This document shows, in pieces, positions 7,211-27,827 of a stretch of 32,000 nucleotides of DNA. Numbering within the stretch: position 1 is the first letter of the stretch; every line of letters starts with the position of its first letter. The stretch is from Delftia acidovorans NBRC 14950 (lineage in GTDB: Bacteria > Pseudomonadota > Gammaproteobacteria > Burkholderiales > Burkholderiaceae_C), in assembly GCF_001598795.1 (NCBI RefSeq), contig NZ_BCZP01000026.1, positions 1-32,000 on the forward strand, written 5' to 3'. Both the position numbers and the translations under genes were made by a program. The notes under the pieces were generated by a model, which was given only the letters and a program-made list of their open reading frames with translations, was not told the origin of the DNA and ran no database searches.

Positions 7211-8302
7211 CTACAGTTCGTAGAACGGGCGGTTGGCCTCAATGCGCGCCTGCTCGCTGACTGGGTAGCGGCGCTCGGCCAGCAACTGCTGCAGCGCGGC
7301 GCGGCCCAGGTCGCGCAGCGGGGTGTAGAAGGCGCTGACGGCCAGTTCGTCCAGCGCGCGCCAGTCATAGACCTGGGAATCGATGAACAGGATGTCTTCG
7401 GCCGGACGCGGCAGTGCGGCGGCCTGGCGTGCGAAGAGGCAGGCCAGGGCGAACTCGGAGCGTTCGCGGTGGTAGCGCGCCAGTTCGCACAAAGGCTCGG
7501 CCCGTTGCGGGCGCGCCGCATAGGCCGTGAGATAGGCCTCGCGCACGGCAGCGGGTTCGGCGCCGGATCGCTCCAGCAGCACGCCAATCTGGAACAGCGC
7601 AAACCACTGCTCCTCGGCCCAGCCGCCCATGGCGGCGCGCTGCCGGTACCAGTGCAGGCTGGGCTCGATCTGGCCCGCATCGCGGTGGCTTTGCGCCAGA
7701 TAGAACACGTTGCGCGTGTTGCCGGGCTGCTCGCGCACGGCCTTTTCGAGCACGGCGATGTCGCGCAGATAGGTCTGCGGGTCCCGGGCCCGAGCGCCGT
7801 CGTGCGAGACATCGATGAAGGGGCCCTCCAGCATCTGCCAAGGCTGGTGCGCCGGAGCTGTCAGGTATTCGTGCAGCACGCCTTCCCAGCGCCAGTCCAC
7901 GTGCGTGGCGATCAGGGCGTTGCGCTGGTATTCGGTGCCCGCCATGTGGCAGGACAGCATGCAGCCGTCCGCCTCCAGTGCAGGCCAGGCAAAGCCATCG
8001 GGCACGCGCAGTTGCTCATCGGCATCGATGAACAGCAGGTAGTCGCCGTGCGGGCGTGCCAGCTGCAGCGCCTCGTTGCGGTTGTGGGCGAAGTCCAACC
8101 AGAGCCGCTCATGCAGGCTGCCGGGCACGCCCTCCATGCACTCGCGCACCAGGGCCTGCGTGCCGTCGCTGGAGCCCGTGTCCACGATGACCCAGTGGTC
8201 CACCCAGGGCTTGACCGAGGCCAGGCAGCGTGCGATCACCGGGGCCTCGTTCTTGACAATCATGTTCAGGCAGATGCGAGGCCGAACGTTCAACATGACC
8301 AT
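7211..8302 (-). CDS. Family-2 glycosyltransferase with a TPR-like helical C-terminal half
   Basis: The N-terminus ..ICLNMIVKNEAPVIARCLASVKPWVDHWVIVDTGSSDGT.. and a ..FIDADE.. (DxD) motif point to GT2. The C-terminal region has helical repeats, and there is no signal peptide. Confidence 0.8.
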   Translation of the reverse strand: MVMLNVRPRICLNMIVKNEAPVIARCLASVKPWVDHWVIVDTGSSDGTQALVRECMEGVPGSLHERLWLDFAHNRNEALQLARPHGDYLLFIDADEQLRVPDGFAWPALEADGCMLSCHMAGTEYQRNALIATHVDWRWEGVLHEYLTAPAHQPWQMLEGPFIDVSHDGARARDPQTYLRDIAVLEKAVREQPGNTRNVFYLAQSHRDAGQIEPSLHWYRQRAAMGGWAEEQWFALFQIGVLLERSGAEPAAVREAYLTAYAARPQRAEPLCELARYHRERSEFALACLFARQAAALPRPAEDILFIDSQVYDWRALDELAVSAFYTPLRDLGRAALQQLLAERRYPVSEQARIEANRPFYEL

Positions 8303-8376
8303 AGCGCAGACACGAGACTCATTGGCAGGAGCACGACACCATCACCGCGATGCCAGACCAGCTAACTCGAGCATCA

Positions 8377-9357
<981 letters not shown>

Positions 9358-9365
9358 AGGTTTGT

Positions 9366-10064
9366 TCAGGAGCGGGTCGAATTGCGCTGACGATGCAGGG
9401 CCATGCCGCCGAGCAGTAGGCTCATCAACATCAGGCCATAGGTGTTGAGCGTGGGAATGCTGGCGGGCGATGTCACTACGGGAGCACCGATCTGCACGTT
9501 GCCGGGAACGGCACTGCCGCTGGGGTTGGATACCGTGGCTCCGGGGCCCAGAGTGACTACGGCCGTGCCGGGGCCCGACGAGGTCAGCACCACCGGCTTG
9601 CCGGGGGCGCCCAGCGTCAGCGTGCCCAGCACCGTGAGATTGGTGCCGGCGGGAAGCACGATGGTCGGGGGCGTCGGGCCGGTGCTGATCAGCGTCAGGT
9701 CCTTGACGACGATGTTGCCGCTGAGCGTCAGGGTCGTACCGGGTGCGCAGGTGTCTGAAAGCACCACGCTGCTGGTGCTCAGGTTCAGTGCCGATGCGCT
9801 GGTCAGGTCGCCGCCGACGTTGAGCACGCCGCCCGTGCCCGTCACCGAGGAGCCCGCATCGAAGCTCAAGGAGCCCGAGTCGAATGAGCCCGTACCCAGG
9901 GCCAGTTCCCCTCCCATCGAGACGGGGACGCAAAACGAAGTGAACGAGCCGCCGGCCAGATCGATGCTGGAGCCTGGAGGAAAAACGATCTGCCCCCACG
10001 CCGAGCCGCACAGCGCGGTGCCCAGGGCCAACGACGCAGCCCAACGTTTTCCAAAACCTGCCAT
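9366..10064 (-). CDS. IPTL-CTERM sorting-domain protein (secreted, Gly/Ser/Thr-rich repetitive body)
   Basis: It has a signal peptide ([24 protein letters not shown]|Q). The C-terminus ..[34 protein letters not shown] shows an IPTL motif, a TM helix and a basic tail. Its stop is 8 nt upstream of the collagen-like gene. Confidence 0.75.
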
Positions 10065-10139
10065 GTGTATCCGCCCCTAAGTACAGGCGTTGCACGCCCA
10101 ATGTAATTTGTGATTCCAGGCACACCCAAGCGGACAAGC

Positions 10140-10307
10140 TCGGCTTGCCGAAGCCGGCCAAATGATGAGTTAGAAAGTAATTCTCATGTAATAAAAATTA
10201 ACAATTGATTAAGAAGTCTCACATCAAAAAAACTATCAATCATTGAAATTTCATGAACCTCTCAATCGCACAACCGCCCAAAGAAGGCGCGAACCAGAGA
10301 AAGCAAC
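10140..10307. promoter_or_regulatory. AT-rich intergenic region upstream of the IPTL-CTERM operon (probable promoter or regulatory region)
   Basis: This is the most AT-rich stretch of the window. It contains TTGAT..ATCAA-type half-site palindromes (10204..10248). It lies between the stop of small gene A and the IPTL-CTERM gene. Confidence 0.35.
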
Positions 10308-10538: not shown

Positions 10539-10693
10539 GTCAGTGCCACTGCCCGGGCGGATGACTCCCGCAGGGCCGGTATGTGCGGTACCGCACAGCG
10601 CCGCTGGGCACGGCCCGTAAGATGAAATGGCGTCATTCCTATTGTCTTCACACTCTCTTGAAGAGGCGGGATGACTGCCCTGGGGTTTCCTTT

Positions 10694-11413
10694 ATGTCCA
10701 CTACCGCCGCATCCACGGGCAATTATTTGCTCGCCTCCTTGTCGCCTGGGCCATGGCAGCGGTGGGAGCCTGCGCTGGAGCCCGTGGAGCTCGCGCTAGG
10801 CCAAGTGCTTTATGAAGCAGACCGGGTCATGAGCCACGTGTACTTTCCCACGACCGCGATCGTCTCACTACTGTACGTGATGGAGAACGGTGCGTCGGCA
10901 GAGATCGCGGTGGTGGGCAACGAAGGGATTGTGGGCGTTTCCCTCTTCATAGGCGGAGGGTCCACTACCAGCAGGGCGGTCGTGCAAAGTGCCGGCAGGG
11001 CCTACCGGTTGAACGTGGGCGCCATGCATGCAGAGTTCGAGCGCGGCAGTCCCGTGCTTCACCCGCTGCTGCGCTACACGCAGGCGTTGATCACCCAGAT
11101 GGCCCAGACTGCCGTCTGCAACTGCCACCATTCACTTGACCAGCAACTCTGCCGCTGGCTGCTGCTGAGCCTGGATAGGCTTCAGGGCGCGGACCTGGTT
11201 ATGACGCAGGAGCTCATATCCAACATGCTGGGCGTGCGCCCCGATGGCGTGACCGAGGCCGCGCTGAAGCTTCAGCGCGCCGAGATCATCCACTATTCGC
11301 GTGGCCGCATCAGTGTGCTGGACCGTACGGGCCTGGAGCAGCGCTCCTGCGAGTGCTATGCGGTGGTGAGAAAAGAGTACGACCGCTTGCTGCCGGAAAT
11401 CACGGCTTGCTAG
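10694..11413 (+). CDS. Crp/Fnr-family transcriptional regulator
   Basis: From the ATG at 10694 the product is 239 aa. It has a cNMP-binding-like beta-roll region (..YFPTTAIVSLLYVMENGASAEIAVVGNEGIVG..) and a C-terminal HTH (..TQELISNMLGVRPDGVTEAALKLQRAEIIHYSRGRISVLD..). Confidence 0.85.
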   Translation: MSTTAASTGNYLLASLSPGPWQRWEPALEPVELALGQVLYEADRVMSHVYFPTTAIVSLLYVMENGASAEIAVVGNEGIVGVSLFIGGGSTTSRAVVQSAGRAYRLNVGAMHAEFERGSPVLHPLLRYTQALITQMAQTAVCNCHHSLDQQLCRWLLLSLDRLQGADLVMTQELISNMLGVRPDGVTEAALKLQRAEIIHYSRGRISVLDRTGLEQRSCECYAVVRKEYDRLLPEITAC

Positions 11414-16076: not shown

Positions 16077-16419
16077 TCCCCACCTCTTCCTCGGCCGCAG
16101 GCAGACCAAAGGTCTCCGGCGGGGCTCCAAGCGCTTCCACCAGCAGCGGATTGCCCCGCAGTTGGCGCACGATCAGACTTGCCTCATGCAACGCTTCTTT
16201 CGCATGCTCTTCCAGCAGCGCTTCGATATAGGTCGGGCGCTCCATGCCCTTGGCCCGGGCCAGCGCGTCGAGAACGCGCAGGGTGTTGGCGTCGCACTGT
16301 TGACGCAGCTCCATGGTGTCGGAGCAGCTGGTGCGACCGGCGCCGCGGGCGAAAGCAACTATCCGTTGCGATGCACGGCGAAGCACTGACTGCGGTGAGC
16401 TGGAACGGACTTCAAGCAT
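16054..16419 (-). CDS. Ribbon-helix-helix-like small regulator in the cII position
   Basis: The ATG at 16419 has a GGAAGGAG SD. The C-terminal segment ..ELRQQCDANTLRVLDALARAKGMERPTYIEALLEEH.. looks RHH-like. The gene overlaps the cro-like stop and the DUF1376 start. Confidence 0.45.
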   Translation of the reverse strand: MLEVRSSSPQSVLRRASQRIVAFARGAGRTSCSDTMELRQQCDANTLRVLDALARAKGMERPTYIEALLEEHAKEALHEASLIVRQLRGNPLLVEALGAPPETFGLPAAEEEVGNARATAS

Positions 16420-16624
16420 TGAGTCCTGCTCCTTCCACAGCGTTGCGCAAGGCCGGCCGATCAGCAAGCAGCCGCCCTTCGGTAGCCAACTGAATTTGGT
16501 ACTGGCGACCGTCAGGTATGTGGCCTTGCTCGACCCATCCCGAGATCGAGGATTGCGCACATCCCAGAGCACGGGCGGCAAGCGCCTGGGTCTTGAAGTA
16601 GGTGATGAGTTCGGAGGGTGTCAT
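16412..16624 (-). CDS. Cro/YdaS-like HTH protein
   Basis: From the ATG at 16624 the product MTPSELITYFKTQALAARALGCAQSSISGWVEQGHIPDGRQYQIQLATEG.. is 70 aa. It is divergent from the CI-like gene. The track TTG start at 16660 coincides with a -35 hexamer. Confidence 0.65.
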   Translation of the reverse strand: MTPSELITYFKTQALAARALGCAQSSISGWVEQGHIPDGRQYQIQLATEGRLLADRPALRNAVEGAGLNA

Positions 16625-16628
16625 GCCA

Positions 16629-16684
16629 CCGATTATTCGGTATTCCGATAAATCGGTCAACGAAAAAACATCGATTTTCCGAAT
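16629..16684. promoter_or_regulatory. OR-like operator cluster between the cro-like and CI-like genes
   Basis: CCGA and TCGG alternate every 8 bp across 16629..16656, a span that includes ATTCGGTATTCCGAT (16635..16649). A degenerate copy, ATCGATTTTCCGAAT, lies at 16670..16684. Confidence 0.55.
16632..16660 (-). promoter_or_regulatory. Sigma70-type promoter for the cro-like operon (TTGACC-N17-AATAAT)
   Basis: The -35 hexamer is at 16660..16655 and the -10 hexamer at 16637..16632. Only 7 nt separate the -10 from the ATG at 16624. The promoter overlaps the operator repeats. Confidence 0.55.
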
Positions 16685-16696
16685 TTTTAAGGATGG

Positions 16697-17173
16697 ATGA
16701 TTGTTCTTATGACGCCCCCTCCAGACTTCGCTACCTTCGGCGACCGCCTACAGTGGTGGATGGCACATCGTGGCTACAAACAGAAGGAACTCGCGGAGTT
16801 GGCTGGGATGGGCCAGCCCGCCCTAAACGAATTGTTGAAAGGGAAAACCAAGGAGCCGCGCGCGTCGCACTTCCTTGGTTTGTGTCATGCCCTTGCACTT
16901 CGTCCTGAGTACCTACTAGACGGCGAGGGCCCTCCAGAAGTCACTAACTTTGCGCAGCTCACCGGCTTGGAAGCCCAGCTTGTGATGCTCTTTCGCGGCC
17001 TCCCTGACGATGCAAAGCGCGACGCAATGCTCATCGACCTGAATCATGAGTTCAACAGTTATCAGGCCGCCAAATCTCCTCCCGCACCATCTGTTCGGCT
17101 CACAGCAGCAGCTGGACCGCGCTCGCCAGCGGTGAAGAAGCCAGCCAAAAAGCTCGTAGACCAGGGCCTTTGA
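16697..17173 (+). CDS. CI-like XRE-family HTH repressor with no S24 peptidase domain
   Basis: The 158-aa product has the HTH ..YKQKELAELAGMGQPALNELLKGKTKEP.. and an AAGGA SD. It is divergent from the cro-like gene. An alternative ATG lies at 16709. Confidence 0.75.
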   Translation: MIVLMTPPPDFATFGDRLQWWMAHRGYKQKELAELAGMGQPALNELLKGKTKEPRASHFLGLCHALALRPEYLLDGEGPPEVTNFAQLTGLEAQLVMLFRGLPDDAKRDAMLIDLNHEFNSYQAAKSPPAPSVRLTAAAGPRSPAVKKPAKKLVDQGL

Positions 17174-17472
17174 TCAGCGGAAACGGCACTTGGCTTGCGG
17201 ATGCGCTTGGCTTCGATCTTCCGCACCATCAGAGCCCTGATGCCGCTTTTCGCAAAACTATCGCCGAACAGCAGCTCGTGAGCACAGACACAAAATAGCT
17301 CCGACAGCTCTGCAAGTTGGATTGCGGAAGGCGAAGCTATCCCTCTTTCCCAAGCCGACACCGCTTGCCTCGTCCCACCGAGGGAACTGGCCACATAGTC
17401 CTGGCTCATCCCTAGCGCCACGCGCGCACTCTTGATCCGGGCACCCAACCCCTGCATCCGCTCCGACTTCAT
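17062..17472 (-). CDS. Second XRE-family HTH protein, predicted to be LexA-controlled
   Basis: The 136-aa product has the HTH ..LGMSQDYVASSLGGTRQAVSAWERGIASPSAIQLAELSELF... It is convergent with the CI-like gene, and the two ORFs overlap by 112 bp at their 3' ends. Confidence 0.7.
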   Translation of the reverse strand: MKSERMQGLGARIKSARVALGMSQDYVASSLGGTRQAVSAWERGIASPSAIQLAELSELFCVCAHELLFGDSFAKSGIRALMVRKIEAKRIRKPSAVSADQRPWSTSFLAGFFTAGERGPAAAVSRTDGAGGDLAA

Positions 17473-17483
17473 TCAGTTTTCCG

Positions 17484-17503
17484 TACTGTGTTTTTTAACA
17501 GTA
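17484..17503. promoter_or_regulatory. LexA (SOS) box TACTGTGTTTTTTAACAGTA
   Basis: The sequence is a perfect CTGT-N8-ACAG palindrome with a TACTGT/ACAGTA frame. It lies 12 to 31 nt upstream of the ATG at 17472 and overlaps the predicted -10. Confidence 0.7.
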
Positions 17504-17528
17504 TGGCAGACAGTTACATCCCTGTCAC
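17500..17528 (-). promoter_or_regulatory. Candidate promoter of the second HTH gene (GTGACA-N17-CATACT)
   Basis: The -35 hexamer is at 17528..17523 and the -10 hexamer at 17505..17500. The -10 shares 4 nt with the LexA box. Confidence 0.5.
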
Positions 17529-17529
17529 C

Positions 17530-17596
17530 CGCAATCGTGGTTTGCGCAATCCTAGATTGCGGAGCGCAACGCACAGTTGCGCAACCCAGGGTTGCG
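17530..17596. promoter_or_regulatory. Array of TTGCG/CGCAA palindromic elements
   Basis: The elements are CGCAA at 17530, TTGCGCAA at 17542..17549, TTGCGgagCGCAA at 17557..17569, TTGCGCAA at 17577..17584 and TTGCG at 17592. The spacing is 15, 20 and 15 bp. Confidence 0.45.
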
Positions 17597-17600
17597 TCTC

Positions 17601-17702
17601 TTCGGAGCACCGAACATTTCCCCAGGATGGCCATCCATGATCGCGGAAGAATTCTAAAAATAATTCGGAATTCCGATTGACAAGCAAATTCGGTGTTCCG
17701 AT
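17601..17702. promoter_or_regulatory. OL-like operator cluster
   Basis: The sites are TTCGGAGCACCGAA (17601..17614), ATTCGGAATTCCGAT (17663..17677) and ATTCGGTGTTCCGAT (17688..17702). They share the TCGG-N4-CCGA core seen at 16635..16649. Confidence 0.6.
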
Positions 17703-17705
17703 AAT
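17677..17705 (+). promoter_or_regulatory. Strong sigma70-type promoter, PL-like (TTGACA-N17-GATAAT)
   Basis: The -35 hexamer is a consensus match and the spacer is exactly 17 bp. One operator abuts the -35 and another covers the spacer and the -10. Confidence 0.65.
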
Positions 17706-17790
17706 TCATCCCGTCAGCAGCAATCTCGCTGCCGGCGGGCTCCACGGCATTGGCCGGGCTTGCCCCGGTCTTTCAAAAATTGCAGCCGAC

Positions 17791-17914
17791 GTTTGCCTCA
17801 CCTGCGAGGCATTCCGGCACACGCACCAGTGGGCATGGGCCACTGCTCTGCTCTGGCAGTCCTGCCAGGCCCAGTCGGCCAAGCGCCGTAGACGGGCAAT
17901 GAGGTGAGGCAAAC
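17791..17914. repeat. Perfect 13-bp inverted repeat (GTTTGCCTCACCT / AGGTGAGGCAAAC) enclosing 98 bp with internal hairpins
   Basis: The arms are at 17791..17803 and 17902..17914. Internal hairpins are CAGTGG..CCACTG and CTGGCAgtccTGCCAG. The repeat lies about 80 nt downstream of the PL-like promoter in a stretch with no convincing ORF. Confidence 0.6.
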
Positions 17915-18241
17915 AGGGTTGCCAAGAACAGAAAAGCCCTGCGCGCAAGCGCTGACAGCCCGGAAAGCACGGGCGACAAACCCCAACTTTGCGAGCAGAG
18001 TTGAGGTTTGCCAAGCTGCGAAAAAGAGTAATCCAGCGGCCCCCGGGCCATGGCTTCCATGGCATAACGGTAGTGCCCTCTCGATATGTGTTGCATACTG
18101 CAACAAGGGGCATCTTTGCCGCTTGGCCCCTAGTCTCGGAAGCTAAACTGCTTCTGGGCCACTCTCTTTCCCTAGCGACCCATCCCCCTGCTCCGTCTGG
18201 CATCCCTGCCACTTTCGGGCAGGTTTGTAGAAAGAGATACA

Positions 18242-18571
18242 GTGGTCGTAGCACAGCTCATCCTCAATCCAGCCGAATCGTCGGCGGTCTACTGCGCCAT
18301 GCGCGCAACGCACTCGGTAGTTGGCCGAGTCGATCTCACGTTGGACAGAGGAACGATATGTACGAGGGTGTTTGAGTACCCCAACGGCAGAATCCGCGTG
18401 TGGCGCTCAGAGGGCGACAGAAGCGACTGCGAAAACTACGCGGGCCATCTGGACTACGCGGCTGCCTATGGGCTAGATCCCACCTTCCCCTTCCAGGTAC
18501 TGCCGCTTTTTCCTCCGCAGCCCAGCGTTACGCACGAACACAGCGAAGTGCTTGAGTGCAGCCGTTCTTAG
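18242..18571 (+). CDS. Hypothetical protein (start uncertain: GTG 18242 or ATG 18299)
   Basis: The ORF is 109 aa. By eye its third codon positions are mostly G or C, which fits coding sequence. I recognise no family and see no clear SD. Confidence 0.4.
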   Translation: MVVAQLILNPAESSAVYCAMRATHSVVGRVDLTLDRGTICTRVFEYPNGRIRVWRSEGDRSDCENYAGHLDYAAAYGLDPTFPFQVLPLFPPQPSVTHEHSEVLECSRS

Positions 18572-22357: not shown

Positions 22358-22846
22358 TCATTTCCCCGGTGCTTGAACCGAGTTTTGACCCATCGTTGGC
22401 AATAAGTGAATTTGTGGCACTGGGGGTTCATGAAAAACACCTGCAATCGCTATCACTGCCGTTACAATTGCCCCTAGCGCCGTAGCAATCGCAGCCCATT
22501 TAGCCCAATTAGCGGCCCTTTCTGCTGCAACTGCTGCGCGTTCAGCAACCAAATACTCCGCGCGCACCATTTCATCTCGACGCTTACGCTCCTCTGCTTC
22601 AAGCCAGAGTTGCGCAAAGCGCCGTGACGTCTCATCGACTTCAGCGTTTACAGCCAATGCCACCCGGAGAAATGCCTCTCCGTCCGGATTGAAACCATCA
22701 ACCCAATTTTGCACTGAACTAACAGAAAGGAATTTCACACGCAAGTGCTGAGACGCCAAAGCCCTCTCTGGATTTTTAAAATAGAAATTGAACCATCCTT
22801 TTTTGCTCTCAGCAACGTCATCTATTTTATCCATAGCTACTATCAT
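22358..22846 (-). CDS. Unknown tail-anchored membrane protein (cassette gene B)
   Basis: Possible starts are ATG 22846, ATG 22834 and TTG 22855. The protein has an ~75-aa N-terminal domain, a charged helix (EAEERKRRDEMVRAEYLVAERAAVAAERAA) and a C-terminal TM helix (WAAIATALGAIVTAVIAIAGVF). It is AT-rich relative to its surroundings. Confidence 0.55.
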   Translation of the reverse strand: MIVAMDKIDDVAESKKGWFNFYFKNPERALASQHLRVKFLSVSSVQNWVDGFNPDGEAFLRVALAVNAEVDETSRRFAQLWLEAEERKRRDEMVRAEYLVAERAAVAAERAANWAKWAAIATALGAIVTAVIAIAGVFHEPPVPQIHLLPTMGQNSVQAPGK

Positions 22847-22884
22847 GATAGTCAACCGTTAGAAAACTAGCAAATTTTCAGAAT

Positions 22885-23457
22885 TTAAATCTTATACATA
22901 GTTACTCCGGGATGTTTTACTCTAACCATCTGAATAAAATCCTCAAGAGCTTCTTGCAACAATTTCGCAGTAGAAATAATTTCTGTGTTTTTCTCAGGAG
23001 ATTGAATCAATATCTCACATAATACCTTCGTCTGCGCCGATATAGATCTTGTCCCTTCGAGTGCAGCTGACCAACTTATATGCAAATATTCTGCCTGAAT
23101 TGTCGCAGCTATAGCTAATTGCTCGCATACGACCGCGTGTAGAAGCTTAACATCCGCTGTCGACAGGACCGAAACTGCCACAAGTCTTTCCAGATGGGAA
23201 GAGGTAGTTGCAACAAAAGTCCTTATCTTACTTATAGCTGATATTTTTTGCAAATGTACTTGCTTTGCGTACTGCAGCTTAACCACCAAAAACGCACCGA
23301 GCAACGCAAGCACAGAGCCGACGGCCTGGACCCACCCAGCCCACTCTGACTTTGTCATACAAACCGCCCACCAATCAATCCATAAAAAACAATATTCAAT
23401 TGGCTGGTTTACTATCTGACCATCGGTATTAGCACTAACCGCTTGACTCCATTCCAT
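22885..23457 (-). CDS. Unknown N-terminally anchored membrane protein (cassette gene A)
   Basis: The ATG at 23457 has an AAGGA SD 7 nt upstream. The 190-aa product has a Trp-rich N-terminus, a TM helix (WVQAVGSVLALLGAFLVV) and an ~130-aa helical domain. It is the AT-richest coding sequence in the window. Confidence 0.55.
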   Translation of the reverse strand: MEWSQAVSANTDGQIVNQPIEYCFLWIDWWAVCMTKSEWAGWVQAVGSVLALLGAFLVVKLQYAKQVHLQKISAISKIRTFVATTSSHLERLVAVSVLSTADVKLLHAVVCEQLAIAATIQAEYLHISWSAALEGTRSISAQTKVLCEILIQSPEKNTEIISTAKLLQEALEDFIQMVRVKHPGVTMYKI

Positions 23458-23541
23458 GGATTCATCCTTTAATACTCAGGAAAATGAACGCACACAGTCC
23501 TTCTTGTGCAGTCACCAGAGTTCATACGACCGATCACCAAG

Positions 23542-24255
23542 ATGTTGCCACAAAATATGAGTGCCAAAAAACAAAAACGAGCCATATGGAATGATCAGTT
23601 AACAAGTCAGCTTTACATCCTTTACCCGGACATGCCAACCGAGCAAGTAGCACAAATACTGGGGTGCAGCATGTCTGCAATCTACCGACAGGCTGTTGCC
23701 CTGGGGATCAAGAAATCCCAGGCCTTCAACGAAAGCGAGCACAGCGGACGAATTCAGCGCGGCAGGAATGACCCTCGGATGGTGGCCACGCAATTTCAAC
23801 CTGGACTCACGCCCTGGAACAAAGGCGTGCCTGGGTCGACGGGTCACCATGAAAACACCCGAGCAACGCAGTTCAAGACGCGCCGGCCGGAAGAGGCCAG
23901 GAACTACTTGCCCATCGGCAGCCTGCGCGTGACGCGCGACGGGCTTCTGGAACGCAAGATGACCGACGACCGGGCAATCGTCCCTGCACGGCGCTGGACA
24001 GGAGTGCACCGACTCGTCTGGGAAGCTGCGAACGGTCCAGTGCCAGAGGGTCACATCGTCGTGTTCCGGCCTGGCCAGCGGACTACCCAGGAGGCCGAAA
24101 TCACTATCGATCGCCTCGAATGCATCAGCCGCGCCGAGAACGCGCGCCGAAACCATCCCGCCCGCAAGTCTCCCGAGCTGGCCAAGCTGGTCCAGCTCAA
24201 GGGCGCCATCACTCGCCAGGTCAACCGCATTGCAAAAGAGAGCCAACCGAAATGA
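23542..24255 (+). CDS. HNH-type endonuclease-like protein with an N-terminal HTH-like region
   Basis: The start is uncertain (GTG 23506, ATG 23542 or ATG 23557). The C-terminus ..VPEGHIVVFRPGQ..ITIDRLECISRAENARRNH.. fits the phage HNH_3-like pattern. Confidence 0.65.
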   Translation: MLPQNMSAKKQKRAIWNDQLTSQLYILYPDMPTEQVAQILGCSMSAIYRQAVALGIKKSQAFNESEHSGRIQRGRNDPRMVATQFQPGLTPWNKGVPGSTGHHENTRATQFKTRRPEEARNYLPIGSLRVTRDGLLERKMTDDRAIVPARRWTGVHRLVWEAANGPVPEGHIVVFRPGQRTTQEAEITIDRLECISRAENARRNHPARKSPELAKLVQLKGAITRQVNRIAKESQPK

Positions 24256-25637: not shown

Positions 25638-26693
25638 TCAACGCTCTTTGACGTTCTCAGGGCGCAGATGGGTATACCGTTTCAACGTGGCCCAGCTTTC
25701 ATGCAACGTGAACTGGGCAACCTCCTGGATGCTGTATCCCCTCTCGAAAAGCCTGCTTGTCGCCTCATGTCGCAAGTCGTGGAAGTGAAGATCCTCGATA
25801 CCAAGGACATGGCAGGCACGCGTGAATGCGGCTCCGACTGATCTGTTGTTGTAAGGGAAGACGAATTCCGCCCCCTCTTCTCTCGACTGACTTTTGATGA
25901 TCTCGGCTGCCGCCTTGAGCACCCGGAAGCACCGCCGGTTGCCCTTCTTCATGCGGGGGTGCTTCACGTCATCCAGCCACGCCACCCCCTTCTCAAAATC
26001 CACATCGTCCCAACGCAGGCGGCATATCTCCTCCTGGCGCCGCGCCGTGAGCAGCGCGAACTGCATGATGTCGCGCATGGGAATGGACGCCCTGCCGTCG
26101 CGGCTGGAGAAGTGCTCCAGTAGCTTGGCCTCTTCCTCGGGCAGCAGCCGGCGCGAGCGCTGGGCCGGCTTGGCGATCACCCGCGTGCGCAGCAGCTCGG
26201 ACTTGGCACGGTCCAGCACCTGCAGCGGCGCATCAATGCCGCGCGCGGCCGAAGCATGCAGGAACACCTGGCGCAGCCACACCATGTCATTGAGCACGGT
26301 GGCCGGGCCGGCCTCGTCTTCCGTGCGCCGCTTCTTGGCGTAGCCCATCAGATCCTGCACCGTGAGCTTGGTGGCCTGGAGGTCGGCCAGGCCAGAGGCC
26401 TGCAGGCGCGCGATGTCGGCTTTTTTACTACGGCCCCACTCAGTCACGTTTTCGGCCGCGCTGACATAATCCCGTAGTAGCTCCCCCACTGAAACTTTCT
26501 TGTGTAGAGCCTGGCCAGAAGCGCGCTCCTGCTCCAGCTCGTACTCCCGCCGGCGCAGCCATTCGCTGGCCAGAACCTTCCGGCTGAACGTCTGTGCTTC
26601 GCTGTAGATGACCTGGCCGCCTTCCTTGAGCCGGATCTGCGCGGTGTATGACTGCGAGCCGTCTGCTCGCTTGCGTGTGGTGATGGTTCCCAT
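25638..26693 (-). CDS. int: Tyrosine recombinase / phage integrase (dusA-associated type by context)
   Basis: The 351-aa product has the C-terminal catalytic region ..HFHDLRHEATSRLFERGYSIQEVAQFTLHESWATLKRYTH... It is divergent from and about 120 bp away from the dusA start. Confidence 0.9.
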   Translation of the reverse strand: MGTITTRKRADGSQSYTAQIRLKEGGQVIYSEAQTFSRKVLASEWLRRREYELEQERASGQALHKKVSVGELLRDYVSAAENVTEWGRSKKADIARLQASGLADLQATKLTVQDLMGYAKKRRTEDEAGPATVLNDMVWLRQVFLHASAARGIDAPLQVLDRAKSELLRTRVIAKPAQRSRRLLPEEEAKLLEHFSSRDGRASIPMRDIMQFALLTARRQEEICRLRWDDVDFEKGVAWLDDVKHPRMKKGNRRCFRVLKAAAEIIKSQSREEGAEFVFPYNNRSVGAAFTRACHVLGIEDLHFHDLRHEATSRLFERGYSIQEVAQFTLHESWATLKRYTHLRPENVKER

Positions 26694-26736
26694 TGAGTGC
26701 TACAAGCCAATTTTGTAGCACTCAATGTAGCACTCA
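26694..26736. repeat. Three copies of the 11-mer TGTAGCACTCA immediately upstream of int (candidate arm-type or operator sites)
   Basis: One inverted copy lies at 26694..26704. Two direct copies lie at 26714..26724 and 26726..26736. Confidence 0.5.
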
Positions 26737-26816
26737 GAGCTGAAAAAACAGGAAAAACGGGGTCCAACGGTGCAAAATCAGGAGCAGTCACCGGAGCAAG
26801 AAACCCAATCAAATCA

Positions 26817-27827
26817 ATGACAAACGTAGAAAATCAAGCACCTGCAAGCATGTGGCGCATGTCCGTTGCACCCATGATGGACTGGACCGACAAGCACTGC
26901 CGCTACCTGCACCGGCTTCTGAGCCGCCACACCTTGCTCTACACAGAGATGGTGACGACGGGCGCTCTGCTGCACGGTGATGTGCCGCGGCATCTGCGTT
27001 TCGAGGCCGAGGAGCATCCGGTGGCGCTGCAGCTCGGCGGCAGCGAGCCTTCCGATCTGGCGCAGGCTGCGCGGCTGGGGGCGCAGTGGGGGTATGACGA
27101 GATCAACCTCAATTGCGGCTGCCCCAGCGAGCGTGTGCAACGCGGCGCATTTGGCGCATGCCTGATGAATGAGGCGCCGTTGGTGGCCGATTGCGTGAAG
27201 GCGATGGTGGATGTGGTGGATGTGCCCGTCACGGTGAAGCACCGCATCGGCATCGACAAGGATGAGAGCTACCAGTTCGTGCGCGATTTCGTGGGCACGG
27301 TGGCCGATGCGGGATGCCGCGTGTTCATCGTTCACGCGCGTAATGCCTGGCTCAAGGGCCTGTCTCCCAAGGAAAACCGCGAGATCCCGCCGCTGCGCTA
27401 CGAGATCGTGGCCCGGCTCAAGCAGGATTTTCCGGAACTGACCATTGCCATCAATGGCGGCATCAAGGCCGATGCCACGGTGCAGGAACTGCTGCAGCAG
27501 GTCGATGGCGTGATGGTGGGCCGCGAGGCCTATCACAACCCCTGGTGGCTGGCCTCGTGGGATGCGCTGTACTACGGCGATGCGAGCGTGGAGCACACGC
27601 GCGAGTCCATCGAGGAGCAGATGGTGGCGTATATGGAGCGCGAGGCGCGCACGCATGGCACGCACTGGTACTCCATCGCGCGGCATATGTTGGGGTTGCG
27701 CAACGGGCTGGCGGGGGCGCGCCGCTGGCGCCAGGTGTGGAGCAATCACCAGTTCAAGCAATTGCCGCCTTCAGAGGTGATGCGGCTTGCGCGCACCAAA
27801 CCGGCCGAGGCGGCGCTTGCCGCCTAG
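26817..27827 (+). CDS. dusA: tRNA-dihydrouridine(20/20a) synthase DusA
   Basis: From the ATG at 26817 the product reads ..WRMSVAPMMDWTDKHCRYLHRLLSRHTLLYTEMVTTGALLHGD..EEHPVALQLGG..INLNCGCPSERVQ.., closely parallel to E. coli DusA. Confidence 0.9.
   Translation: MTNVENQAPASMWRMSVAPMMDWTDKHCRYLHRLLSRHTLLYTEMVTTGALLHGDVPRHLRFEAEEHPVALQLGGSEPSDLAQAARLGAQWGYDEINLNCGCPSERVQRGAFGACLMNEAPLVADCVKAMVDVVDVPVTVKHRIGIDKDESYQFVRDFVGTVADAGCRVFIVHARNAWLKGLSPKENREIPPLRYEIVARLKQDFPELTIAINGGIKADATVQELLQQVDGVMVGREAYHNPWWLASWDALYYGDASVEHTRESIEEQMVAYMEREARTHGTHWYSIARHMLGLRNGLAGARRWRQVWSNHQFKQLPPSEVMRLARTKPAEAALAA

Follow-up and report, generated by a model that had tools for sequence, protein, structure and literature searches.

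How does a lambdoid prophage respond to DNA damage when its CI-like repressor carries no domain for self-cleavage? This question is raised by the immunity region of a prophage found in the window, by which we mean the whole 32,000-nt (32-kb) stretch of DNA that was analysed. The window has a G+C content of approximately 65% and covers the right two thirds of a P22-like/lambdoid prophage, which continues past the left window end. Leftward from the Cro-like gene are encoded a lysozyme, a P22-type portal, a large terminase, NinB, a resolvase and a DUF1376 replication protein, and rightward from a strong PL-like promoter an Erf-like annealing protein and an exonuclease. The integrase gene lies on the strand opposite to the PL operon at the right-hand prophage end, where it adjoins a dihydrouridine-synthase (Dus) gene followed by host genes. 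It was noted that the integrase gene (25638..26693, minus strand) begins 3 nt from the Dus gene (26697..27827, plus strand), which is the layout of dusA-targeting integrases. A family-2 glycosyltransferase and a 594-aa collagen triple-helix repeat protein are encoded between the nin region and the terminase genes (7211..10161, minus strand). Within the leftward phage operon, a Crp/Fnr-family regulator gene (cNMP_binding and HTH_Crp_2; 10583..11413, plus strand) stands on the opposite strand at a lower G+C of 0.58 and is probably an accessory gene. Between the recombination genes and the integrase, a block of low G+C (22358..24255; 0.49-0.50) has an HNH_3 protein and two minus-strand ORFs of 165 and 190 aa that match no family; it may have been inserted as an accessory or defence element. 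A DNA similarity search against deposited phages gave no match to the window.

The immunity region reads, in order, cro (minus strand), PR/OR, the CI-like gene (plus), a 136-aa HTH gene of the XRE type (minus), a LexA box, four operators of a type we call B, and OL/PL (plus). The Cro-like gene (16412..16660, minus strand) belongs to the P22_Cro family (Pfam, 45.8 bits), and its true start is likely the Met at 16624, judging from homologues that begin MTP(S/T)ELI. A second palindrome, type A (TCGG-N4-CCGA), is found at PR and PL like classical OR/OL operators. The OR region (16632..16685) holds a PR-like promoter, TTGACC-17-AATAAT (16660..16632, minus strand), with type A operators at 16637..16648 and 16671..16682. 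The OL region (17602..17705) holds type A operators at 17602..17613, 17665..17676 and 17690..17701, and a PL-like promoter found by consensus scan, TTGACA-17-GATAAT (17677..17705, plus strand), divergent from the XRE promoter. The CI-like repressor (158 aa; 16697..17173, plus strand) matched HTH domains only in Pfam, with no Peptidase_S24, and has a basic, poorly conserved C-terminal tail. As no S24-like ORF was found anywhere in the window either, that is, in the right two thirds of the prophage, the view from the sequence-only reading of a repressor without an S24 domain was borne out. The CI-like protein had 40 homologue clusters, the named ones from Comamonas and Diaphorobacter. As a separate observation, a site 73-139 nt downstream of the PL-like promoter (17785..17851, minus strand) and one in a relative (L007 3624..3690) matched the Rfam family RF02917, 'Burkholderiales-2 RNA', at 65.3 and 66.9 bits against a gathering score of 67.9 (E 7e-10). 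The site lies on the strand opposite to PL, which is that of the LexA-box gene, approximately 300 nt upstream of that gene; at the gathering threshold there was no Rfam match in the window or in six relative loci.

We then consider the putative damage input. The LexA (SOS) box TACTGTGTTTTTTAACAGTA at 17484..17503 is a 20-bp palindrome with a perfect CTGT-N8-ACAG 16-mer, and it is the single occurrence of that pattern in the window. On the minus strand upstream of the XRE gene, the consensus scan found one promoter-like site only (17500..17528), with a -35 of GTGACA (17528..17523), a 17-nt spacer and an extended -10 of TG-n-CATACT (TG at 17508..17507, hexamer at 17505..17500). TACTGTGTTTTTTAACAGTA covers the hexamer and the start point of this predicted promoter, and the ATG of the 136-aa gene (17472) follows 11 nt beyond the box. 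The sequence-only reading had thus seen correctly both the perfect box and its overlap with the predicted -10 (CATACT) and start region. The SOS box of most Betaproteobacteria is CTGT-N8-ACAG and was applied as such in Acidovorax, a member of the Comamonadaceae (PMC6595937, PMC3323433). The box matches the LexA motif of the host clade (CTGT-N8-ACAG, as in most Beta- and Gammaproteobacteria), the clade being taken from the sources of the XRE and CI homologues. By chance, 0.41 matches to CTGT-N8-ACAG are expected per window and at least one appeared in 33 of 100 shuffles, so one match is not rare; for a 20-bp palindrome with at most two mismatches the expectation is 0.19 per window. What raises the box above chance is its conservation in relatives.

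A word-based search returned only six homologue clusters of the XRE protein, all of 132-136 aa, and the closest genome match to the gene was a 90%-identical homologue in Delftia tsuruhatensis. Together with the named sources of the CI homologues, this makes the host one of the Comamonadaceae, probably a Delftia. The box is perfect in three of the relatives (L001, L002 and L007) and reads TACTGGCAAAAAACACAGTA in a fourth (L003), with CTG-N10-CAG retained. The box is still kept, between flanks that have diverged, although the window is saturated at synonymous sites in comparison with L002 or L003. A profile search of 1.8 billion representative proteins, with a match list dominated by multi-HTH proteins, showed approximately 20 single-domain clusters with the family motif. 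The wider family has homologues of 87-162 aa, in short (87-106 aa) and long (136 and 162 aa) forms, and both forms have in common the motif ..VTRQxxSxWExG..PxAxQLxxLxxxxCxCAHxLLFG.., with its C-x-C-A-H-x-LLFG end. Judged by sequence, the gene defines a small unnamed XRE family in Comamonadaceae lambdoid prophages. Protein searches of deposited phages gave generic HTH matches only, below 45% identity, placing the family in no studied phage, and a literature search returned no description of this module.

In an IMG/VR scan, each of the 23 family loci with upstream DNA had a CTG-N10-CAG box whose core is A+T-rich and which lies 22-44 nt ahead of the start codon; three XRE genes from outside the family, found by the same scan, had no box. 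The family box consensus, tACTGTATaaAAAnACAGTa, is the same as the E. coli-type SOS box. When 16 lineages were aligned on the box, they had in common an extended -10, TGnNATACT, whose ACT opens the box, together with a weak -35. In several distant family members, the over-long N-terminus assigned by the gene caller reads '..NTV..', which is a translation of AACACAGTA. A Cro-anchored scan intended as an unbiased sample gave only two new loci, both without a repressor, and CI-anchored and PL-leader-anchored samples were used instead. All seven contexts reached solely through CI-like homologues, a route blind to the XRE gene, have the XRE gene and, again 22-44 nt ahead of the start, the box in a module adjoining PL, with boxes such as TACTGTATGTTTATACAGTA in Diaphorobacter and CACTGTATGTGCATACAGTA in Comamonas. 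Host LexA very probably controls the 136-aa XRE gene, to judge from these sites.

The four type B operators are tandem 15-bp palindromes (GCAAY-N5-RTTGC) upstream of the -35 of the XRE promoter, at 17531-45, 17546-60, 17566-80 and 17581-95 (together 17531..17595), with centres predicted near -45, -60, -80 and -95. The pattern GCAA-N7-TTGC occurs seven times in the window against 1.0 expected, and none of 100 shuffles reached seven. The array is present in 22 of the 23 family loci, with sites that begin at -42, -57, -72 and -87 relative to the box in a fixed register, and in some lineages a further type B site overlaps the -35. Between the array and PL, the distance ranges from 157 to 202 nt; on account of this variation and the fixed placement at its own promoter, the idea that the array activates PL was considered and rejected. 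No type B sites were found at OR, PRM or PL, and no DNA route to the switch promoters is visible. Three other strict type B matches in the window (6200, 12885 and 16355) were tried as operators and taken as chance, with approximately one expected and none at OR, PRM or PL. The last of them, a fifth strict GCAA-N7-TTGC (16355..16369), lies inside the gene downstream of cro and recurs in close relatives only (L001 3184..3198, L007 5104..5118 (changed spacer)), not being kept in L002 or L003; it is probably a chance match and, less likely, a distant operator.

The operators separate the XRE protein from a CI-type lysogeny repressor: type B sites stand only at the promoter of the XRE gene itself, and the type A sites at PL and PR co-vary with the CI-like repressor. 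The module occurs with three CI types, distinct from one another in HTH domain and operators, the PL operators being ATC(G/A)G-N4-CCGAAT for the window type, TAGTC(C/G)GACT for the type of L028 and AGCAA-N4-TTGCT for the type of L059. In all three, the XRE gene is accompanied by the GCAA-N7-TTGC array and the LexA box. XRE similarity was found to be independent of CI type (mean identity of 56.5% within types vs 56.2% between types), and two loci with different CI types, L054 and L089, have XRE proteins that are 99% identical. All three CI types gave HTH matches only, with no S24, and the third differs in its C-terminal part.

The XRE gene itself (17062..17472, minus strand) matches Pfam HTH_3 at 42.2 bits (cut-off 23) and encodes a core of residues 1-88 and a disordered tail of residues 89-136. 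In the AF2 model, residues 1-70 are well modelled (pLDDT approximately 90 for residues 10-60) and the pLDDT falls below 50 from residue 86, leaving 86-136 disordered; the core agrees with the five-helix fold of HTH_3 proteins. By sequence, the nearest solved relatives are the DNA-binding domains of the 434 and P22 c2 repressors, and the recognition helix aligns with that of 434 repressor, with R-Q where 434 has Q28-Q29. The best matches in a fold search were the restriction-modification controller proteins C.BclI and C.AhdI and P22 c2, all with weak E-values of approximately 1e-3; the top structures include 1Y7Y, 2B5A and 5WOQ. Pfam and PHROGs returned only HTH/transcription-regulator families, with no similarity to Tum, DinI, ANT, Bro-N, KilA-C or other known antirepressors, and no paralogy was detected between the XRE and CI-like proteins (E 0.47). 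Given a 434/P22-like recognition helix and operators of its own that are co-inherited with the gene and hold their register with the promoter, the protein is most likely a DNA-binding regulator of its own promoter. The R-Q pair would suit an operator with GCAA where that of 434 has ACAA. An XRE-type effector, taken as an atypical antirepressor analogous to Tum or those of Gifsy, had been put forward earlier; the XRE assignment stood, and the protein appears to be more than an odd antirepressor, with its 434/P22-like helix, its own four operators and a likely DNA-binding role. We also observed that the C-x-C-A-H motif (residues 61-65), with which the last core helix opens, hardly varies in the family, with CVSAH and CCCAN as rare variants, and is unusual for HTH_3; it could bind a metal, serve in redox chemistry or make a dimer contact.

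The main argument that this module does the job of self-cleavage comes from its relation to the S24 repressors. An independent sample was drawn through a conserved PL-leader element of approximately 65 nt, blind to both the XRE gene and CI, which gave 29 loci with the full element. Nine of these have the module, all with HTH-only repressors, and seven were ambiguous. In five module-negative lineages (L091/L100/L167, L105, L112, L113/L138 and L114/L163), PL is followed directly by a repressor with Peptidase_S24 (52-63 bits), and a LexA-like box is absent within 3 kb; two lineages have an HTH-only repressor and no module. No S24-like ORF was found in the XRE-positive loci. Counted by lineage, repressors without and with S24 numbered 17 and 0 among module carriers vs 2 and 5 among the others (Fisher exact test; p = 5e-4), a value to be read as a guide only, since the lineages are related and their independence is overstated. 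Because the module and the S24 repressors are mutually exclusive, the module would take the place of repressor cleavage. The earlier idea that SOS induction runs through LexA de-repression of the XRE gene thus gained indirect support, as module and S24 never co-occur among loci sharing the PL leader.

The PL-leader element deserves a description of its own. It reads TGCAGC..GGCACGGCTGGGTAAACACAGGGCACCGCGGGCGGYAGCGGGATAnAAAAGG, is highly conserved, and is common to all CI types including S24. It lies at approximately 1720..1790 in L001 and at the same relative place in L002, L006, L023, L027, L028, L046, L048, L055, L059 and L064, and is not present in the window. RNAalifold gave two 4-bp hairpins only, with no covariation; the element may act in the way of a nut or put site, or may bind a protein.

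We propose that the XRE gene, together with its LexA box, promoter and four GCAA-N7-TTGC operators, would form one portable regulatory cassette, flanked by PL/OL on one side and by the end of the cI operon on the other, that serves as the SOS input of the prophage switch, a reading to which we give a probability of roughly 0.6. In the lysogen, as the sequence and its conservation suggest, host LexA would sit on the -10 and start region and keep the XRE gene off. Upon DNA damage, LexA would be cleaved and the XRE protein made. The protein would then occupy its own array, beside or over the weak -35, and set its own level, a step suggested by the fixed register and the co-inheritance of gene and array. 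Finally, and least certainly, it would switch the prophage to lytic growth, replacing the RecA-stimulated CI self-cleavage of the S24 sister phages, as the mutual exclusion suggests. For this last step, the XRE protein may antirepress CI by direct contact with its non-DNA-binding C-terminal part, in the manner of the Gifsy antirepressors, which is our preferred guess though less likely than not. Such a specific protein-protein model is strained by near-identical XRE proteins that occur with different CI types and by the different C-terminal part of the third type. A second LexA-controlled gene or antirepressor may also lie in the left arm of the prophage, beyond the window.

The module could instead be an SOS-inducible accessory cassette without a role in induction, namely a toxin-antitoxin-like pair, a regulator of defence or exclusion, or a regulator of host genes, that settled in the slot between cI and PL, a usual place for accessory genes in lambdoid phages. 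This is quite unlikely in our view. The same slot in relatives does hold SNase, SRAP, KilA-N, P63C and Dcm methylase genes, the arrangement of an HTH gene followed by a small gene with upstream palindromic operators resembles type II toxin-antitoxin operons and restriction-modification controllers, and the best fold matches are C.BclI and C.AhdI. However, the module was found in seven of seven CI-anchored contexts, always adjoining PL, unlike the variable accessory genes, and it excludes S24 repressors. The window also has no partner gene: we found no adjacent co-transcribed ORF for a toxin, the XRE gene being followed directly by the antisense strand of cI.

In a second alternative, the action is in cis. 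Once LexA is cleaved, a LexA-controlled convergent transcript would collide with PRM-driven cI transcription and, being antisense to the 3' end of cI, lower CI, with the protein only tuning the promoter. The XRE gene is always transcribed toward the cI operon, and in the window the two genes overlap tail-to-tail by 112 nt (17062..17173); the overlap is conserved in the Delftia clade, at 103-112 nt in L002, L003 and L007. The last ~50 residues of the XRE protein, predicted to be disordered, resemble read-through into the antisense strand of cI. No terminator-like site was found on either strand in 16300..18400, although scans between convergent genes gave no more terminators than the shuffle expectation and are uninformative. 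Since both tails are under low constraint and no terminator-like site intervenes, antisense interference at cI is possible in the window, and in this lineage such transcription from the LexA-controlled promoter would assist the XRE protein. It is not general, because other lineages have several genes between XRE and cI (one to five, in both orientations, over up to 2.9 kb, in L028, L048 and L087-L089). Weak terminator-like sites follow the XRE gene in L045 and L046, and the purifying selection on the protein core is strong, beyond the apparent need of a promoter tuner, which leaves cis action as the whole explanation improbable.

A third alternative turns on a small gene found in relatives. 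In approximately half of the lineages, a conserved ORF of 62-91 aa with its own ribosome-binding site follows right after the XRE gene on the same strand and is co-transcribed with it (L055 3791..4066; L056 3789..4061; L063 3800..4042; L064 3778..4026; and, on the minus strand, L086 4997..5269 and L048 7277..7474). Its motif is V..YAA.LA....LT.EE.....LG.......RS...VPVL, it has no Pfam or PHROG family, and its AF2 model is helical and poor (pLDDT 60), too poor for a fold search. An HMM built from the relatives' ORF found no match in any of the six reading frames of the window, and the ORF is also absent from L001-L007, L028, L045, L059 and L062. Where present, it is as good a candidate for the effector as the XRE protein; the antirepressor may then be the small protein, and the XRE protein its Arc-like regulator. 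Carried to the window, this would make the XRE protein a mere autoregulator of an SOS operon (compare Arc/ant of P22) and the window module a non-inducing remnant that has lost its effector. The usual antirepressors are indeed small proteins (PMC3121763, PMC10432266). However, the box and the operators persist beside an XRE gene with an intact protein in at least seven lineages that have no small ORF, and the constraint on their XRE core is strong: dN/dS was 0.05-0.13 in the window's clade, which has no small ORF, over saturated synonymous sites. Considering also that the small ORF has no known family and a low-confidence model, we regard the remnant status of the window module as improbable. 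It is very improbable that the palindrome arose by chance, or serves a phage protein as operator, instead of being a LexA site: 0.41 matches per window would be expected by chance, but in about 20 diverged lineages CTG-N10-CAG, with its A+T-rich core, is retained at this point of the promoter between differing flanks, the consensus is that of E. coli-type SOS boxes, and the control XRE genes lack the box.

The proposed SOS cassette can be compared with several known switches. Tum of coliphage 186 and AntC of phage N15 are LexA-controlled antirepressors that inactivate a repressor without a cleavage domain; 186 tum lies far from the 186 switch. The window module is like them in the LexA box at its promoter and in a partner repressor without a cleavage domain, and differs in that its XRE protein has no sequence or domain similarity to either (Pfam HTH_3 only). 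To our knowledge, neither Tum nor AntC regulates itself through operators of its own. In the arc-ant operon of P22 immI, the first gene encodes Arc, a small DNA-binding autoregulator, the second the antirepressor, and Mnt keeps the operon off in the lysogen. Here too an autoregulator gene would come first, with a separate repressor holding the operon off in the lysogen. In contrast, Arc is a ribbon-helix-helix protein, the repressor of its operon is the phage's Mnt and not LexA, P22 c2 is cleavable, and the window has the first gene only.

The C proteins C.AhdI and C.BclI have the same fold as the XRE protein (best PDB matches, at a weak E of approximately 1e-3) and, as here, tandem palindromic operators that lie directly upstream of their own -35 and overlap it. 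LexA control is not a feature of C proteins, however, and the window has no restriction-modification genes; one relative, L062, has a downstream methylase. In Gifsy-1 and Gifsy-3 of Salmonella, the antirepressors GfoA and GfhA act on the repressors GfoR and GfhR, and a single antirepressor is effective against heteroimmune repressors (Lemire et al. 2011, PMC3121763). Both there and here a lambdoid prophage with an uncleavable repressor has as its SOS input a small gene under direct LexA control (predicted for the window). GfoA and GfhA work on heteroimmune repressors, and the window module pairs with CI types of different operators. The XRE gene lies in the immunity region with four operators, whereas GfoA and GfhA lack an HTH as well as any operator array of their own. 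In the TF-smORF modules, an XRE-type factor turns on its own operon, and cI is put out of action by a small protein that does not cleave it (Silpe et al. 2023, PMC10432266). These modules are SOS-independent, have a cI that is still cleavable, and reside in linear plasmid-like phages of Vibrio and Aeromonas (PMC10432266). Their XRE factor was likened to 1Y7Y, 2B5A and 5WOQ, which are also at the top of our fold search (PMC10432266), and the relatives of the window likewise have an XRE gene and a small ORF. Their small ORF points the other way, whereas ours is co-transcribed where present and absent in the window, and the input here is LexA, as predicted. The module is closest in logic to the LexA-controlled antirepressors (GfoA/GfhA, Tum, AntC) and closest in parts to the XRE and small-protein modules of Silpe et al.

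Prophage induction sets the timing of phage-borne gene spread, and few ways of coupling it to DNA damage are known: CI self-cleavage, LexA-controlled small antirepressors, and LexA as a direct co-repressor. The module described here can be recognised by an SOS box, four GCAA-N7-TTGC operators and an XRE gene with C-x-C-A-H. It marks prophages with uncleavable repressors in Delftia, Comamonas, Diaphorobacter and related metagenomic phages, and it swaps between immunity types. A Comamonadaceae lambdoid clade may have exchanged self-cleavage for this portable SOS cassette with the XRE protein itself as the effector that disables CIs of different operator specificity, although we hold this to be doubtful. 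Equally doubtful at present, such an XRE effector would be a new class of antirepressor, a LexA-gated, self-regulating commitment switch in a cassette that sometimes includes a small helical protein. If the proposal is true, the module would be a predictive marker for SOS-inducible prophages in the Comamonadaceae, would add a natural LexA-gated and self-regulated genetic switch, and would offer a test case for an HTH protein overriding a repressor.
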